Positions 11,523-42,496 of a stretch of 46,674 bases of DNA are shown here, piece by piece. Source of the stretch: Vulcanimicrobiales bacterium (GTDB lineage Bacteria; Vulcanimicrobiota; Vulcanimicrobiia; Vulcanimicrobiales; Vulcanimicrobiaceae); contig JBBQQR010000016.1 of NCBI GenBank assembly GCA_038215615.1, positions 1-46,674 of the forward strand. Reading direction: 5' to 3'. Below the pieces are notes generated by a model, which was not told where the DNA came from, ran no database searches, and saw only the letters and a program-made list of their open reading frames with translations. Numbering within the stretch: position 1 is the first letter of the stretch; the number at the start of each line of letters is the position of its first letter. Position numbers and translations under genes: made by a program.

Positions 11523-14500
11523 TACGGCAGAGCCGGTAGCGAAAGTGACGGCCTGGTGGCCAAATCCGGGTAGGTTTCATGGAAGTTTTCAGCCGCCGAG
11601 AGAACCAGCCGGATCGCGAAATCGAGCTGAGGATCTTTGCCGTCGCGGTAATCGTGCGGGGCGATGTCCACGTCGTAGTCGGGATCGGTTCCGTAATTTT
11701 CGACGCGCCAGCCGACGTCTTTGAACCAGAACGAAAACTCAGGCTGCGTGGTGATCGTGCCGTCCACCAGACGGTGATACGGATTGATGCCGACCACGCC
11801 GCCCCACGTGCGCTTTCCGACGAGCGGGCCCAGTTTGTAGAGTTTGAAGCAGTGACTGAAGATGTCGCCGTCCGATCCCGCAAACTGATTGGTGATCGCC
11901 ACGAGGGGACCGGCGACAGATTCGGGCGGATACGGAAACGGTTTTTGGCTGTAGCGCGCGACATCGTAGCCGACGCGTTTGCGCGCGAGCTTTTCGAGCA
12001 GCAGCGGCGAAACGTGGCCGCCGCGGTTGTAGCGCACGTCCACAATCAGCCCGCTCCGATCGAACTCCGAGAGATATCCACGGTGAAATTCCGCAAATCC
12101 CCACGGCCCCATGTCGGGAATGTGCAGGTAGCCGATTTTTTCGCCGGTCGCTGCGTGCACATATTTCCGCTGCGCGTCTACCCATGCGCGGTAGCGTAAG
12201 CTCTGCTCGCTGGCCAGCGTTTTGACCGTGATGCGCCGCTCTTGCGATCCGGAACGGATTACAATGCTGACCTCGCGACCCGCGGCGTTGACCAGTGCGT
12301 TGTCCGGCCCGAACTCCCGGTCGAGTTTCTTCCCGCCGATGGCCGCGAGGACGTCGCCTTCGCGGACGTTTAGTCCGGGCTCGGCCAGCGGTGAGTCGCT
12401 TTGCGGATTCCACGAGTCGCCGCGCAAGATGTGCGCGATGCGCCAGCCTCCTGCGGCATCGTCGTAGACATAGTCGGCGCCCAAAAAGCCGCGGCGGTAT
12501 TGGGGCGGTTCGCGCAGGTCGCCGCCGTATTCGTAGGCGTGCGATGTGCCGAGTTCGCCGTGCATCTCCCAAATGAGATCGGAGAGTTCGGCCCGCGTGC
12601 GCACGCGCGGAAGCACGGCTTCGTAACGGTCGCGTACGCGATCCCAGTCGATGTCAGCCATGTCTTCGAGCCAGTAGTGTTCGGTTTGCAGCCGCCACGC
12701 TTCGCGATACATCTGGCGCCATTCATCGCGCGGTTCGATTTCGACGCTGATGCGATCCAGATCGATCCAACCGCTCTTGCGCCCCGGTTCGGAAGGCGGT
12801 TTGGGGTCGTCGTGATCTTCGGGCAGTTCGGCAAGCGCGTCGATCGCGCGCACCTTCTCGTGCGAACGGTAGAGCAGCGTGTGGTGATCGGGCGCGAGCG
12901 CGATCTCGCAAACGTCAGTCGCGACGGTGGCCGCCCGCTGCGTTTCAAAATCGTAGGCCATCAGCGTTCCGGCGGCGTCCTCTTCGTCCCACGAACGCGA
13001 CTGCGGCTTGATGCCGCGTACCTCGAACTTGGTGAACAGTACGCGGTTGCGGACCGCCACGATCTGATCGTACTCGCCTTCGTCTACGGGGAAGGCCAAA
13101 ATCCGGCCTTGGATTCCGTCGAAGTCGATCTCGAGACGCGGCGGCCCCGAATCTTTCTTTTTCTCCGGTCCGTCGCGATCGTGATCGTGATCGCGGTGAA
13201 CGGGTTTTGGTTTCGGCGTGAACGGGTTGGGCACGTCGGCCCGCAGCGTGATGACAAAAGGCCGCTGCGCCTGCGGGAAGCTCAAGTCGAACTGCAGCGC
13301 GTCGTAGACCGGATCGAAGTCGCGCGTGGAAATAAAATACAGATATCGTCCTTCGGGGTCCCATGCCGGACTTTGATCGGCCCGCAGCTGTGGCGTGACG
13401 TCTTTGATCTCGCCCGATTTGATTTTGACGACGCGAATAACCGAAACCGCCTGATCGAGCGGCGACCACGCGTAGGCGAGGTAGCGGCCGTCGGGCGAAA
13501 ACGCGAGACCGCTGACCCGGTTTCCCACGCTCTTGTCGAGCACGCGCGGCGCACCGTCGCGCACGTCGACCGCAATCAGTTCGTAACGGTGGTTGGCAAA
13601 CGCGACCAGGTCCTTGGCGGGCGAAGCGACGAGCTCGGTGACGCGTCCGATGTCGCTGGTCGTGACCAAAACCGGTTCTTTCGATCCGTCGACCTCATGT
13701 ACGGCAATTTGCTCGAAGCCGTTGACGTCGGTGGTTGTCGCGAAGCGGGTTCCGTCGTTCAGCCACGCGATGCAGCGGTAACGGACTGTGCTGCCGGCGC
13801 CGTGTGCGACCGGCGCTTCTTCCCAGAACGGCATCGTAAACGGCTGTCCGCGCGCGATAACCGCCAGTTCGGTGCCGTCGGGGGACGGGGCGAACTCGTC
13901 GAGCGTCTGCGTTCCCGGTAAGAATTTGCGTACGGTTTGCGATGCCGCCGACGGCATCGTGACATCGACTTCGCGCGTTTCGCCCGTTGTTACGTCGTAG
14001 CAGAAGAGCGCTCCGCCCGCGGTGTAGACGATGCGCGCTCCGTCAGTCGATGGAAAGCGCGCGTAGTATTCGCCGTGATGCGTATGCCGCTGCACATCGT
14101 TACCGTTCAGCGCGCAAGAATAGATGTTGCCTAAGCCTTCATGATCGGCGGCGAAATAGATCCGGTCACCGATCCACATCGGCCAAACGGGATTGCCGTC
14201 GGGCAAAGCGAGATGTTCGAATTCCCCTTCGCCGGCCGCGTCGATCCAAATTTCGCCCGAGGTTCCGCCGTGGTAGCGTTTCCAGCGTGCCGGATCGTCG
14301 GCATTGCGTCCGATCACCATCCGCGTTCCCGGCCCGGGAGAGATCGCGCGCATGTGTCCCAGGCCGAGCGCTCGCGGTGTTCCGCCGGACGCTGACACCG
14401 CGAAACCACGCGTATCGCGTTCGTACCACGCATTCGGATTCGAGACGAAGAGAATCTCGAAACCGTCAGGCGTCCATCCGCTGACGGTCGTCAGCGTTGC

Positions 14501-31871: not shown

Positions 31872-34346
31872 GTGAAACTTCGGCTCCGAGAAGAATCGCG
31901 TAGCGAAGAGGTTGCGCGGCTGCGCGCCGTGCTTCCGGCATCGGCGCAGTCCGCGCTGATCTCCTATCGCACGCGAACGGGCGCGTTGCTGCGCGTAGCC
32001 GGAGTTGCCGCGGGCGCTTACGACCGCGAGCACCATGACGTCTTCGTGCCACCGAGCGATGAGCCGCGCGAGCTCTCGCTTGAAGTCGAGCTTGAGGCGC
32101 TGCCGACAAACGGCTTGCCGTCAGGGCCCGGAATCATATGGTGGCTGCTCAACGCGCTGTCGCACCAATCTCCCCAGCGCTTTGTCATCGTGAGCCTGTC
32201 GAACGACGCCGAGCAGCGCGTCGAAGACGCGCAAGCCGAGGGGGAAAATCCGTCTCTCCCCCTCATCGGGCACAGCCACCTCGATGTGGCGTGGTTATGG
32301 ACGTACGAGCAGACGCGGCGCAAAGCGCAGCGGACGTTTGCAATTGCGTGCGATCTCTTCGAGCGCGATCCGCAGTTCGTGTTTGCGCAAAGCCAGCCGC
32401 AACTCTACCGTTTCGTGGAAGAAGACGATCCGCAACTGTTCGAGCACGTCTGCGAAGAAGTGCGCGCGGGCCGGTTCGACCCGGATATAGCAGCGCTTTG
32501 GGTTGAAAGCGACTGTAATATTCCCTCCGGCGAATCGCTGTTGCGTCAAATGCTGTTCGCGCACGACTATTGCACGCAGCGTTTAGGCGCGACGCCCTCG
32601 ATTGCGTGGCTGCCCGACTCGTTCGGTTTTGCGAACACCCTTCCGCAGCTGCTGGCGCATGCCGGCATTCCGTTTTTCGCGACGACGAAGCTGCAATGGA
32701 ACGATACGACACGTTTCCCGTATCCGCAATTCGTGTGGCGCGGCCCGGACGGAAGCAGCGTGACGAGCGCATTGATCCAGTCTTACGATGGCGGTCCTTA
32801 TCCGTGGCGAGTGAAGACCGCGCGCGAGCGGCACGAGCCGCTGGTCCTTGGATACGGCGACGGGGGCGGTGGCGTCACTCCCAAGATGCTCGCGCAAGCG
32901 CCGGCGATCGGCAGGTGGATCCATCCGCGCGAATGGTTCGACGGGCTCGCGAACCGCGGCGACGCGCTCCCGGTCTATTCGGGCGAGCTCTATTTGGAGT
33001 ACCATCGGGGCACGTACACGACGCACCACGACGTAAAGTTTTACAACGCGCTGCTGGAGCGCGCGCTGCTCGAAGCCGAGGAGCTCGTGGCGTGGTGTGA
33101 AGCCGTTCGCGCACCCGCCGCCGCCACGGCGCAGTTCGCGCAGCGCCTTCGCGCCGCGTGGGAAATCGTGCTGCGCAATCAATTCCACGACGTGCTCCCG
33201 GGCACTGCGATTGCAGATGTGTACCGCGATGCGCGGAGCGAATACGCGCAAGCCCAAGAACTGGTAGCGAGCGCGATCGCATCGGCGGAGTCGATGCTCC
33301 CGCGCACGGGCGTGCGCAGCGCCGCCGGGCCGTGCGCGCCTCGCGAAGACGCGACATCGTTTGTATTCGACAACGGCTTGGTGCGCGCGCGTGTGGGCGG
33401 CGACGGTGTCATCACCGAACTCGCCGCGTCCGGCGGCCGGAACGTAGCCGTTGAAGCCAACGTGCTCGCGCTGTACCGCGATCGGCCGCGCCAATGGGAA
33501 GCGTGGAACATCGACGACGGCTATCAGCGAACGCTACGCCGCGTCTCTGCGTTTGAGGCGCGCGTCGCCGGTGACGGGCTCAAGCTTGAGTACGATTTCG
33601 ACGGGTCGCCCGGCATGATGCGCGTCGAGCTGCGCGAAGGCGAGCCGTTTCTACGCGTCGAGCTCGACGTCGACTGGCATACTCGCCGCACGCTGCTTCG
33701 CGTCGAAAGCCGTTTCGCCGTCGAGACGAATGAGGTGACCTACGGATCTCCGCACGGCACGATCGTGCGCAGTGCGCTGCGCGATACACCCGAGAGGCGC
33801 GCGAAGTTCGAAGTTCCGGGCCAGCGCTTTGCCGCCGTGCGCGACATCCGCGCTGAAGGCGCGGCAATCTTTGCGCTGGACACGTATGGCTGGAGCGCGC
33901 TTTCGAAAGGGAGCGAAATCGCGATAGGGCATTCGCTGCTGCGCGGAACTGTTTGGCCGGATCCGCAAGCCGACATCGGTTCGCATCGCTTCAGCTATGC
34001 GTTCGCGCCGCTGGGTTCTGCGAGCACCGGTGCTTTAGAACGTGCGTGGCTGCGGTTCGCGCACGAACCGCGCGTCCGTTTGTTTACGACACCAGACGAG
34101 AACGTGCTGGTCGTCGCTTGCAAACCGGCCGAAGATCGCGACGGCGCGATCGTGCGGGTGCGCGAATGTAACGGCGAAGCGCGGCCGGTTCGTTTGCGAT
34201 CGGGCGCGCGGCTAGCTTCCGCGCATGCGGTCGATGCGCTCGAGCGTCCCGTGGAGAGCGCCGTCTCAATTGAAAGCGAAACGCTGGTCTTCGAATTGAA
34301 AGCGTTCGAGCTGCGATCGTTTCGCGTGCGGTTCGGCCGTGCGTAA
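31872..34346 (+). CDS. Glycoside hydrolase family 38 alpha-mannosidase
   Basis: GHSHLDVAWLW, GESLLRQ, WLPDSFG, GYGDGGGG, GELYLEYHRG, NQFHDVLPG; start GTG 31872 inferred. Confidence 0.9.
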   Translation: MKLRLREESRSEEVARLRAVLPASAQSALISYRTRTGALLRVAGVAAGAYDREHHDVFVPPSDEPRELSLEVELEALPTNGLPSGPGIIWWLLNALSHQSPQRFVIVSLSNDAEQRVEDAQAEGENPSLPLIGHSHLDVAWLWTYEQTRRKAQRTFAIACDLFERDPQFVFAQSQPQLYRFVEEDDPQLFEHVCEEVRAGRFDPDIAALWVESDCNIPSGESLLRQMLFAHDYCTQRLGATPSIAWLPDSFGFANTLPQLLAHAGIPFFATTKLQWNDTTRFPYPQFVWRGPDGSSVTSALIQSYDGGPYPWRVKTARERHEPLVLGYGDGGGGVTPKMLAQAPAIGRWIHPREWFDGLANRGDALPVYSGELYLEYHRGTYTTHHDVKFYNALLERALLEAEELVAWCEAVRAPAAATAQFAQRLRAAWEIVLRNQFHDVLPGTAIADVYRDARSEYAQAQELVASAIASAESMLPRTGVRSAAGPCAPREDATSFVFDNGLVRARVGGDGVITELAASGGRNVAVEANVLALYRDRPRQWEAWNIDDGYQRTLRRVSAFEARVAGDGLKLEYDFDGSPGMMRVELREGEPFLRVELDVDWHTRRTLLRVESRFAVETNEVTYGSPHGTIVRSALRDTPERRAKFEVPGQRFAAVRDIRAEGAAIFALDTYGWSALSKGSEIAIGHSLLRGTVWPDPQADIGSHRFSYAFAPLGSASTGALERAWLRFAHEPRVRLFTTPDENVLVVACKPAEDRDGAIVRVRECNGEARPVRLRSGARLASAHAVDALERPVESAVSIESETLVFELKAFELRSFRVRFGRA
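32183..32243 (+). repeat. REP-like palindromic element, in-frame in the GH38 gene
   Basis: TGTCATCGTGAGCCTGTCGAACGA followed by CCGAGCAGCG-CGTC-GAA-GACG-CGCAAGCCGAGGGG; matches the ligA copy. Confidence 0.8.
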
Positions 34347-35936: not shown

Positions 35937-38921
35937 ATGCCACCCGGTCTCGACTCCATCGTTATCAAGGGCGCGCGCGAGCATAACCTCAAGAACATCG
36001 ATCTCGCCCTTCCACGAAACCAGCTGATCGTGATCACCGGCCTCTCGGGGTCCGGCAAATCCTCGCTTGCCTTCGATACGATCTATGCCGAGGGTCAGCG
36101 CCGCTACGTCGAATCGCTCTCTTCGTACGCGCGGCAATTCCTGGGGCAGATGGAGAAGCCGGACGTCGATTATATCGAGGGACTCTCGCCGGCGATTTCG
36201 ATCGATCAGAAGTCCACGTCGCGCAACCCGCGCTCGACCGTCGGAACGGTTACCGAAGTCTACGATTATCTGCGCCTGCTCTTCGCGCGCATCGGGCTGC
36301 CGCATTGCTACAACTGCGGGCGCGAGATCTCTTCGCAAACCAGCGACCAGATCGTGGACTCGATCATGGAACTCCCCGACGGTGCGAAAATTCAACTGCT
36401 TGCGCCGCTCGTCCGCGGTCGCAAGGGCGAGTACGCCAAACTATTTGAAGAGATAGCCAAAGAGGGCTTTTCGCGCGTGCGCATCGACGGCGAACCGCGC
36501 GAGCTGCGCGAAAAGATCGTCCTCGATAAAAAACGCAAGCACACCATTGAAGTTGTCGTCGACCGCCTGGTGATGAAACCGGATATCCGCAAACGGCTCA
36601 CCGACTCGGTCGAAACGACCGTTCGGCTCTCCACCGGCATCGTCACGGCGCTGGTTGAAGACCCTTCGGCAGGCTCGGGGCAAGCTAAGGCCCGAGAACT
36701 CACCTACAGCGAGGCGTTCGCATGCGTCTACTGCGGACTTTCATTTGAAGAGCTCGCGCCGCGGCTGTTTTCGTTCAACTCCCCTTACGGCGCGTGTCCG
36801 GGCTGCACCGGCCTGGGCGAAAAGATCGAAATCGATCCGTGGCTGGTCATTCCCGATCGCGGCAAGTCGATCGAGAGCGGCGCGATCGTTCCGTGGAGCA
36901 AGTCGCTGGGCAGCGGGCGCTTCCCCTCGATGAACCCCTATTATCTACAACAGCTCGAGCGTGTGCTGCGGCGCTATCGCGTGAAGATGACGACGCCGGT
37001 CGAGAAGATGCCCGACGAAGTCGTCGACGTGATTTTATACGGCACCGATCGCGAGCAAAACTTCGCTTTTGAATCGCGGGCCGGCAAAGTCTGGGAATAC
37101 AAGGCGACCTTCGAAGGCGTCGTCAACAATTTGGAGCGCCGCTACAGCGAAACGTCGAGCGACTACGTCAAGGAAGACATCGAGAAGTATATGTCCGCCT
37201 CGGTCTGCCCGCAGTGCAAGGGCGCGCGGCTCAAACCCGAGGCGCTGGCCATAACGGTGGGCGGTTCCAACATCGACAAGTTGACGCGACTTTCGATCGA
37301 ACGGTGTGAAAAATTTTTTAACGAGTTCAAACCGAGTGCACGTGAAGAACAGATCGCGCATCAGGTGCTCAAAGAGATCCGTGCGCGCCTGGGCTTCCTG
37401 ACCAACGTCGGTTTGAATTATTTGACGCTGGGTCGTTCGGCCACCACGCTTTCGGGCGGCGAATCGCAACGCATCCGGCTGGCGACGCAGATCGGCAGCT
37501 CGCTGGTCGGCGTACTCTACATCTTGGACGAGCCGTCGATCGGTTTGCATCAGCGCGACAACGACAGATTGCTCGCAACGCTAAAGACGTTGCGCGACCT
37601 CGGCAACACGCTGATCATCGTCGAGCATGACGAGGATACGATCCGCAATGCGGATGTGGTTGTCGATATTGGCCCGGGCGCCGGCGCGGAAGGCGGTTAT
37701 GTGTTGAGTGCGGGAACGCTTGACGACGTTATCGCCAACCCGGAGTCGGAAACCGGCGCATATATTTCCGGCCGCAAGTTCATTCCGATACCCAAAGAGC
37801 GGCGCGAGCCCCGGTCGTGGCTGCAAGTCCGTAAAGCTAAGGCCAACAACTTGCTTGGGATCGACGTCGATCTTCCGGTCGGCGTGTTCTCGTGCGTCAC
37901 CGGCGTCAGTGGAAGCGGCAAATCCACGCTCGTCAATGACGTGGTCGTCAAGGCGCTGAATCAGCATCTGCATCATCAGCCGGCGGCCGGAACGTACGGC
38001 AGCGTGCGCGGCGCCGACGTGCTCGACAAGCTCGTCGTGATCGACCAATCGCCGATCGGACGTACTCCGCGCAGCAATCCGGCGACCTACACCGGCGCCT
38101 TCGACCTGGTACGCGAGCTGTTTTCGCTCGTTCCGGATTCGAAGATGCGCGGCTACATGCCGGGCCGTTTTTCGTTCAACGTGCGGGGCGGCAGATGTGA
38201 ATCCTGTGAAGGCGACGGCATCATTAAAATCGAGATGCATTTTCTGCCGGATGTCTACGTACCGTGCGAAGTGTGCAAGGGCAAGCGCTACAACGCGCAG
38301 ACGCTGGAGATCAAGTACAAAGGAAAGAACGTCAGCGACGTGCTCGATATGCGCGTCGACGAAGCGTCGGAATTCTTTTCGGCGATACCGCGCATTCACA
38401 ACAAATTGCGTACGATTTGTGAAGTCGGGCTCGGCTACATCAAAATGGGACAGCCTGCGACCACGCTCTCGGGCGGCGAGGCGCAACGCGTCAAGCTGGC
38501 GACGGAACTCGCGCGCCGCTCGACGGGCCGCACGTTCTACGTGCTCGACGAACCGACGACCGGTCTGCATTTCGCCGATATCCACAAACTGCTCGAAGTC
38601 TTGGACCGCTTGGTGCAGACGGGCAACACTGTGCTCGTGATCGAGCACAACCTCGACGTCATCAAAACGGCCGACTACATCATCGATCTCGGTCCCGAAG
38701 GCGGTGACCGCGGCGGCACCGTGGTTGCGGCCGGAACTCCCGAAAAGGTCGCGCGCGACAAGCGTTCCTACACCGGGCAATACCTGTTCCCCGTGCTGAA
38801 AGATCAGCGTGGCGTCGGACACCGCCGGCCCGCGGCCAGCGCGATCGAAGCGCTGGAGCGTGAGAATTTGCGGGCCCTCGACGACCTGGCGAAGGGTGAC
38901 AGGGTAGCCGTCGAAGCCTAA
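35937..38921 (+). CDS. uvrA: Excinuclease ABC subunit A
   Basis: [18 protein letters not shown], two LSGGE signatures, zinc fingers, GVSGSGKST. Confidence 0.98.
36662..36686 (-). repeat. REP-like element (reverse orientation), in-frame in uvrA
   Basis: CCCTTCGGCAGGCTCGGGGCAAGCT (PSAGSGQA), similar to CCCTTCGACCCGGCTCAGGACAGGCT in ligA. Confidence 0.7.

Positions 38922-39278: not shown

Positions 39279-42496
<3,218 letters not shown>

Follow-up and report, generated by a model that had tools for sequence, protein, structure and literature searches.

A dispersed two-hairpin repeat in Eremiobacterota genomes and its probable reader, a small Ssn-type GIY-YIG nuclease

To our knowledge, palindromic repeats inserted in frame into essential genes, such as the Rickettsia palindromic elements (RPEs) and the CGTC-tagged repetitive extragenic palindromic (REP) sequences, have been known for more than 20 years with no enzyme that explains them. 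Here, we analyze two palindromic stretches, one in the gene of a GH38 alpha-mannosidase and one in ligA, the gene of the NAD-dependent DNA ligase. Both lie in a window of 46,674 nucleotides (nt), contig C16 in the genome of a soil bacterium from the Eremiobacterota (source genome, or G000; 2.21 Mb in 54 contigs, 61% G+C). The two stretches are copies of hairpin 2 of a dispersed 60- to 85-nt two-hairpin repeat and not an isolated pair. The explanation that we favor, and consider probable, is that the conserved base of this repeat is read on single-stranded DNA (ssDNA) by a small Ssn-type GIY-YIG nuclease.

Ssn proteins are GIY-YIG nucleases of about 94 amino acids (aa) with the gene layout NTS-ssnA-NTS, in which the NTS/SRM hairpin repeats have the sequence CGTCATTCCCGCG..GCGGGAATC (Chenal et al. 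2025, Nat Commun, PMC11893778). The sections of that article used here describe binding of the hairpin repeats solely as ssDNA and on one strand, cleavage a few bases upstream, no binding of RNA by SsnA, and inactivation of SsnA at Y6, Y17, and E64. They also report that the cytosine directly after the palindrome is crucial and that cleavage persists when the loop is swapped for complementary random extensions, whereas in Neisseria meningitidis a palindrome changed with its hairpin kept abolishes activity (PMC11893778). As far as the same sections go, the work ties one hairpin group to an ssDNA nuclease and reports few intragenic copies (PMC11893778). For the CGTC-tagged REPs, which include RPE-4 and RPE-6 of Rickettsia, the sections consulted of Di Nocera et al. 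2013 give no dedicated transposase (PMC3733652).

The two window stretches and the repeat

Each of the two stretches is 35 nt long, lies on the + strand, and is in frame with its host gene. The GH38 stretch is CCGAGCAGCG-CGTC-GAA-GACG-CGCAAGCCGAGGGG at 32209-32243 (+), and the ligA stretch is CCGAGCAGCG-ACCG-GAA-CGGT-CGCAAGCCGAGGGG at 40024-40058 (+). A sequence-only reading had described their flanks of 10 and 14 nt as identical, their four inner pairs as all different and still paired around the GAA loop, and their encoded residues as changed. All of this is borne out, with the GH38 stretch reading AEQRVEDAQAEG and the LigA stretch reading different residues. Because the GCG and CGC of the supposed flanks pair as well, the true stem is 7 bp in both copies. 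The parts of the two copies are located as follows.

32182..32243 (+): whole repeat copy in the GH38 gene (nhmmer, E 2.7e-15; covariance model R1, 80.3 bits, E 2.2e-17)
32184..32207 (+): unit 1 of the GH38 copy, a GTCAT head and a short hairpin (T-CG-T GA GC / loop / C GA A-CG-A), then the invariant C
32208..32243 (+): unit 2 of the GH38 copy, with the conserved base GCCGAGC-A ... AAG-CCGAGGGG, the tandem G.A/A.G motif, and the variable hairpin
32216-32222 with 32226-32232 (+): 7-bp stem GCGCGTC/GACGCGC of the GH38 copy, with a GAA loop (sequence and fold)
39973..40058 (+): whole repeat copy in ligA, 28 codons in frame (nhmmer, E 7e-5; R1, 37.9 bits for 40013-40058)
40022..40058 (+): unit 2 of the ligA copy (sequence and fold)
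40031-40037 with 40041-40047 (+): 7-bp stem GCGACCG/CGGTCGC of the ligA copy, with the GAA loop at 40038-40040 (sequence and fold)

The covarying stretch in the GH38 gene falls within unit 2 of a copy that spans 20 codons in frame and is translated FVIVSLSNDAEQRVEDAQAEG. In the ligA copy, the fold places an inverted unit nested inside unit 1. Both copies are translated in the same element frame, and they are the only significant R1 matches in the window.

Genome scans gave the consensus TGTCAT-SS-TGAGC-YTG-TCGAA-SS-AC for unit 1 and CCCYGAGC-A-GCG[3-4 variable bp][loop][complement]CGC-AAG-YCGARGGG for unit 2. Base stem, tandem G.A/A.G motif, and G-C pair recur in every unit, and units are arranged singly, in tandem, or nested. 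The source genome holds 47 copies by nhmmer profile (E < 0.01) and 41 by R1, and R1 also matches 7 to 114 times per genome in 14 of 30 related genomes; thus, with the source genome included, 15 of 31 genomes are positive, with about 1,000 R1 matches in total. When 185,579 species genomes were scanned for the exact pattern, at least 121 stretches matched. All 80 loci among the matches listed come from Eremiobacterota/Vulcanimicrobiota metagenome-assembled genomes (Baltobacteraceae, Rubrimentiphilum) or from records named “uncultured bacterium.” The repeat is oriented: in an alignment of 27 copies (A1, described below), G1, T2, C3, A4, T5, and C24 are invariant, with the conserved C standing right after the palindrome. 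Across 59 copies, GTC is preceded by T in 98% and by C in 1%, which gives the tag TGTC.

The repeat is most similar to the Ssn/SRM system in its unit 1, where a GTCAT-type sequence stands just 5′ of the palindrome and a conserved C just 3′ of it. Tens to hundreds of oriented copies per genome, a small single-domain GIY-YIG gene placed between inverted hairpin repeats, and the co-occurrence of gene and repeat are further likenesses. Unlike the SRM, its core has tandem G.A mismatches (YGAGC...YCGAR), and the repeat carries a second, appended hairpin unit that lacks the GTCAT head. By crude gene calls, about 19 of the 47 copies are intragenic, in comparison to 2% in N. meningitidis as given in the cited sections (PMC11893778). 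The lineage of the source genome is absent from 12 of the 14 supplementary files of that article, these 12 being the ones searched (PMC11893778).

Other families share parts of this picture. In the sections of PMC3733652 used here, CGTC-tagged REPs are likewise short tagged stem-loops with a short tail that form head-to-head dimers, have no tyrosine transposase, and include intragenic units in genes for DNA repair and replication, DNA ligase, and tRNA synthetases; our repeat differs in its TGTC tag, two-unit architecture, hypervariable upper stem, and dedicated candidate enzyme. The likeness to RPEs concerns the mode of insertion only and not a sequence relation: RPEs too are inserted in frame into unrelated housekeeping genes and tolerated as extra loops, but they belong to a different phylum and sequence family, are about 100 to 150 bp long rather than 60 to 85 nt, and are described as encoding a conserved peptide, whereas the frame varies between orthologs here (PMC10969869, passages cited). 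As with REP/REPIN-RAYT systems, an enzyme gene of single or low copy number is flanked by inverted hairpin repeats that are abundant in the genome and mostly inherited vertically (PMC3116915 and PMC2817692, as excerpted); unlike them, our repeat has no GTAG tag, the source genome has no Y1 (PF01797) gene, and the candidate enzyme is a GIY-YIG nuclease. The search for Y1/RAYT transposases (PF01797) returned 0 matches in the source genome, which is 100% complete by marker genes, and matches in 6 of 14 named genomes as a control; no TnpB (PF07282) was found in the source genome. A miniature inverted-repeat transposable element was rejected because the copies have no target-site duplication: the longest flanking direct repeats are distributed as in a swapped-flank control. 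Our literature searches found nothing on repeats in Eremiobacterota and nothing that joins GIY-YIG with YhbQ, UPF0213, or repetitive extragenic palindromic sequences.

Many copies have tandem duplications (2 to 4 times, 19 to 24 nt) of the 5′ head and a few flanking bases, for instance at G000:C4:39029-39092, C7:3570-3635, and C28:16180-16220 and at the orthologous ligA, GH38, and RF3 sites. The number of these duplications varies among sister species.

Pairing, peptide, and position of the copies

Selecting copies by the 5′ head alone, with the stem ignored, gave 104 copies (92 from other genomes and 12 from the source genome). They comprise 26 with a simple unit 2, 64 with a hairpin-length insert, and 14 without the 3′ anchor. 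All 64 inserts are mutually distinct. With the stem register fixed at 1 nt on the 5′ side and 3 nt on the 3′ side, stem positions 1 to 7 are each paired in 84 to 98% of the 64 copies, and pair types change from copy to copy (position 5: G-C in 35, C-G in 11, and A-T in 11; position 4: C-G in 47 and T-A in 10). Pairs 4 to 7 are fully paired in 35 of 39 copies, in comparison to a mean of 15.7 (maximum 23) over 2,000 arm swaps. Stem mismatches at random rates in further copies, which the sequence-only reading had named as evidence against itself, were therefore not found.

Alignment A1 (27 copies, gap-free, with an 18-pair structure) has 97.3% of its cells paired, versus 84.8% in shuffles, and nine pairs altered on both sides (57 cells); neither value was reached by any of 500 shuffles. 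When the register is slid, 35 to 49% of cells pair. The covariation includes base pairs 6-22 and 7-21 of unit 1 (CG 14/GC 13 and GC 15/CG 12) and the Y27-R57 pair of unit 2. The 35-nt pattern with up to 3 mismatches matches only the two window sites and has no match in any of 100 dinucleotide shuffles. We also rejected chance as an explanation.

Hairpins with GNA triloops are very stable in ssDNA, and a GNA triloop closed by C-G is a DNA-hairpin signature. Eighteen of the 36 triloops are GNA (13 of these GAA), in agreement with the emphasis that the sequence-only reading had placed on this loop. Tetraloops of the GNRA type also occur (GTAA 3, GAAA 1, and GCAA 1), and on the element strand G.T wobbles outnumber A.C (6 versus 2). 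Intermediates with a single mismatch or a G.T are found as well.

At orthologous sites, the same gene position holds different versions of the repeat. LigA orthologs are present in 30 of the 31 genomes, and the ligA site carries a repeat in six of the eight same-genus loci read (G000, G006, G005, G007, G008, and G003); it is without one in G001, G009, and four loci from other genera. At this site, G006 combines the window stem with a GGA loop, the hairpin of G005 and G007 is placed in unit 1, and the copies in G008 are truncated. The GH38 site is occupied in 9 of 10 same-genus genomes and is empty in G009, G016, and G010. There, G007 and G008 share the window stem GCGCGTC/GACGCGC (in unit 1, G008 differs from the window copy by a C-G pair cleanly flipped to G-C), G002 and G001 have the stem GCGTTCGC/GCGAACGC, G004 has GCGCAC/GTGCGC, and in G006 and G005 the hairpin belongs to unit 1 and another frame is read (CHGERAPLG..; elsewhere VIVSLSND..). 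At the RF3 site, a repeat is present in 8 of 10 genus genomes, and both its architecture and its frame vary; the site is empty in G009 and reduced to a 10-nt head remnant in G008. The distribution of hairpin type (unit 1 or unit 2) is incongruent between the ligA and GH38 sites of sister species.

In G002, G006, and G007 (L196-L198), the upper stem at the RF3 site, GCGAGCC-GAA-GGCGAGC, itself holds a tandem G.A/A.G, which brings the GAGC...CGA motif to three levels of nesting.

These sites bear on whether the repeat is kept for its peptide, as a flexible linker module. The shared element frame of the two window copies and the placement of insertions in linkers or loops would suit such a role. 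However, at the GH38, ligA, and RF3 sites, orthologs vary in architecture and are translated in different frames, and the peptide is therefore not what is conserved. Moreover, 21 of the 47 copies are intergenic, 7 run across a gene end, and 5 lie antisense within genes; residues change with the four altered base pairs; and the pattern is explained by nucleotide pairing and not by amino acid conservation. Because of the frame changes at the orthologous GH38 and RF3 sites, we rejected peptide selection, which we regard as extremely unlikely. The earlier proposal that selection acts on nucleic acid structure over peptide is supported by these frame shifts, by the family-wide covariation, and by the copies in both orientations and between genes.

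Paired arms could also arise by mutation without selection, if intrastrand templated repair in quasi-palindromes or gene conversion between copies copied one arm onto the other. The swapping of whole modules between sister species at orthologous sites (hairpin in unit 1 or 2), the incongruence of ligA and GH38, the 64 of 64 distinct inner sequences, and the head duplications and inversions, which point to frequent repair or recombination at copies, are all in line with such a process. However, simple arm-copying would erase the tandem G.A/A.G, the unpaired A, and the AAG, which are kept at fixed positions, and the intermediates with one mismatch or G.T also speak against it. It leaves the link to a nuclease gene, described below, unexplained, although both could act together. 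As the sole source of the pairing, we consider this process quite unlikely.

Selection could instead act at the RNA level, with the copies serving as transcribed stem-loops that stabilize mRNA, take part in processing, resemble terminators, or modulate translation, as proposed for many REPs, and with the nuclease link secondary. By crude gene calls, on which the gene contexts of all 47 copies rest, 14 copies are intragenic in sense and 5 in antisense orientation, 21 are intergenic, and 7 lie across a gene end, and the element strand is the sense of the host or upstream gene in 35 of 47 (14 + 21 versus 5 + 7). Many copies sit tightly between co-directional genes, with the GAGGGG end 1 to 21 nt ahead of a start codon. 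The GNRA-type tetraloops and the excess of G.T over A.C would likewise be expected of RNA. The sense bias, however, is equally explicable by replication-strand bias, and some copies are antisense within genes. GNA closed by C-G accounts for half of the triloops, the window has 0 Rfam matches at gathering score, and neither window stretch has the T-run typical of terminators. In addition, the absence of RNA binding described for SsnA in the cited sections (PMC11893778) counts against an RNA target. We therefore regard selection on RNA as unlikely.

Copies with a GAGGGG 3′ end 1 to 21 nt upstream of a co-directional start codon include those at G000:C19:36674, C28:16120, C30:13349, and C5:109791, among others; this end could serve as a ribosome-binding site.

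The GIY-YIG gene and its link to the repeat

The source genome has an 86-aa GIY-YIG open reading frame (ORF) at G000:C9:36078-36338 between inverted repeat copies at 35973-36034 (+) and 36374-36434 (−), whose heads face outward. The protein is a single PF01541 domain (52.4 bits). Homologous ORFs are 85 to 107 aa long in 15 non-truncated loci and 34 to 86 aa in 4 loci that are cut short, and the catalytic-type residues Y7, Y17, R27, H31, and E65 are invariant in 14 sequences.

Homologs with E ≤ 1e-21 occur in G000-G010, G014, G015, G016, and G018, which are exactly the 15 R1-positive genomes among the 31, and the other 16 have neither such homologs nor R1 matches. G012 has a 43%-identical homolog (5e-16). 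G030, an unpublished genome, enters only three tallies: genomes lacking the repeat, genomes lacking a close homolog, and LigA orthologs (one, with its insertion site unread). Of 19 homologous loci, 15 have outward-facing heads on both sides of the gene and 4 on one side only, in comparison to 6 of 5,000 random genome positions. These 19 loci represent 11 different flank contexts, and in some of them the TGA within the inverted head serves as the stop codon of the ORF. In metagenomes, 571 of 598 candidate stretches proved to hold relatives. Of the best 80 metagenome loci, 64 had both flanks, and the relatives that these 64 encode are 45 to 63% identical; heads face outward on both sides in 45 of these 64 and on at least one side in 62, versus 2 (left) and 5 (right) with shuffled flanks.

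Gene layout and co-occurrence make the small GIY-YIG nuclease the candidate binding protein of the repeat, and unit 2 presumably belongs to what it reads. In the mechanism that we propose, the nuclease would recognize the conserved hairpin base on ssDNA, whereas the upper stem would need only to pair. That the upper stem varies yet stays paired is what would be expected from the tolerance of Ssn, in the passages cited, for a loop replaced by a paired random extension (PMC11893778); in both systems, loop identity appears unimportant. Natural covariation would in this way separate the hairpin parts read as sequence (base and head) from an upper stem read as structure only. Cleavage followed by repair or copying may then spread and remodel repeat copies, which would explain why the 5′ head is duplicated in tandem and why architectures differ at one gene site in sister species. 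The duplications of head plus flank are compatible with upstream ssDNA cleavage and are not evidence for it. We regard the feature as a variant of the Ssn/SRM (CGTC-REP-like) kind, in which nuclease binding, the part played by unit 2, and the way copies spread are presumptive.

Several observations weigh against this assignment. The published SRM search sequence occurs in 0 of the 47 copies and 0 of the 64 metagenome loci, and it is not enriched in the genome (13 matches versus 24 to 34 in shuffles). The covarying stretch sits in unit 2, which lacks the GTCAT head, and the base pairs of unit 1 covary freely, unlike the palindrome requirement reported for N. meningitidis. The protein is likened to Ssn by PF01541, its catalytic-type residues, and its gene layout, and its nearest solved relatives in a profile search are UPF0213 proteins (1zg2, 3e-20; 1ywl, 2.5e-16), which the parts of PMC1564403 used here place in a bacterial Slx1-like group. 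Because related genomes are not independent, the co-occurrence of 15/15 versus 0/16 overstates its support. The source genome's own gene (G000:C9:36078-36338) has a −1 frameshift after residue 66, and that of G005 has a premature stop. Finally, the folding stability of the GH38 copy is unremarkable (z = −0.5 as DNA and +0.6 as RNA); since these z-scores do not single the copy out, we left stability out of the evidence. With these points taken into account, reading of the repeat by a small Ssn-type nuclease remains, in our judgment, the probable explanation.

In comparison to G006, G007, and G008, the source genome lacks 1 nt of an A-rich run, which causes the frameshift, and the shifted frame still encodes the conserved C terminus. 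The frameshift is either a recent event or an assembly error.

A family missed by the published SRM pattern thus combines the layout of a nuclease gene between inverted repeats, heavy colonization of housekeeping genes, and informative covariation. At least 6,249 protein clusters match the GIY-YIG profile, which suggests that the Ssn-type world is broader than its current motif definition. We put forward as a tentative and rather doubtful extension that a widespread hairpin repeat class (GTCAT-nn-YGAGC...CGAAG-nn, with tandem G.A), outside the published SRM definition, is the cognate DNA of a large uncharacterized branch of small GIY-YIG proteins and that cutting and copying drive its spread into protein loops and its fast remodeling. 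If this were true, RPE-like “selfish DNA inside genes” would gain its missing enzyme, and loop variation in essential enzymes would have a named source.

At the tRNA-synthetase/GIY-YIG locus (G000:C9:35973-36885; L166-L169), the nuclease cassette and the gene next to it are ordered and oriented differently in G000, G006, G007, and G008, a pattern that inversions between inverted repeat copies would be expected to produce. In two other genomes, many repeat units form arrays directly beside the GIY-YIG gene, at 1868-2996 of L179 (G014) and at 1899-2113 of L174 (G015). The array in L179 has at least 20 units, about 50 to 70 nt apart and in both orientations, and recalls REP clusters (BIMEs).

The source genome has a second small GIY-YIG gene, at G000:C4:51500-51769 (ORF 51575-51769), which is YhbQ/UPF0213-like by eye and has no repeats nearby. 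It is present in most relatives and matches the first type at E 1e-6 to 1e-9. NCBIfam names matched neither of the two small GIY-YIG proteins of the source genome.

Host genes and further insertion sites

The two host genes in the window are the following.

31872..34346 (+): GH38 alpha-mannosidase gene (start uncertain, 31746 or 31872; crude gene call)
39285..41354 (+): gene of the NAD-dependent DNA ligase LigA (match to 2owo, E 8e-176; PF01653)

The GH38 repeat occupies residues ~146-169 of the ORF (31746/31872-34346), directly before the GH38 N-terminal domain (PF01074, residues 173-384 of the 866-aa ORF). The region that precedes the repeat is conserved among orthologs, whose alignments begin at about residue 31-39. 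In LigA, the repeat segment comprises residues 231-258, with gaps opposite it in the alignment to Escherichia coli LigA (2owo). It adds ~20-28 residues to a loop of the adenylation domain and breaks the PF01653 match into two stretches.

Elsewhere in the source genome, copies are inserted in frame, with Pfam domains on both sides or around them, in genes for RF3, a class I tRNA synthetase, Lhr, TrpD, PurL, a biotin carboxylase/BCCP fusion (in the linker), and a LigD-like protein (two copies). Other copies, also by Pfam, lie at the C-terminal tails of a LipB-like protein and TrpE or antisense in NuoG-like and CO-dehydrogenase-like genes.

One further site involves a tRNA gene. Beyond the tRNA-Gln gene at G000:C15:13012-13085 (−), after 8 nt, lies a repeat copy of one unit, followed by 26 nt that duplicate the 3′ end of the tRNA (12938-12963). 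The site as a whole (G000:C15:12938-13085) resembles an insertion in which the tRNA end was rebuilt.

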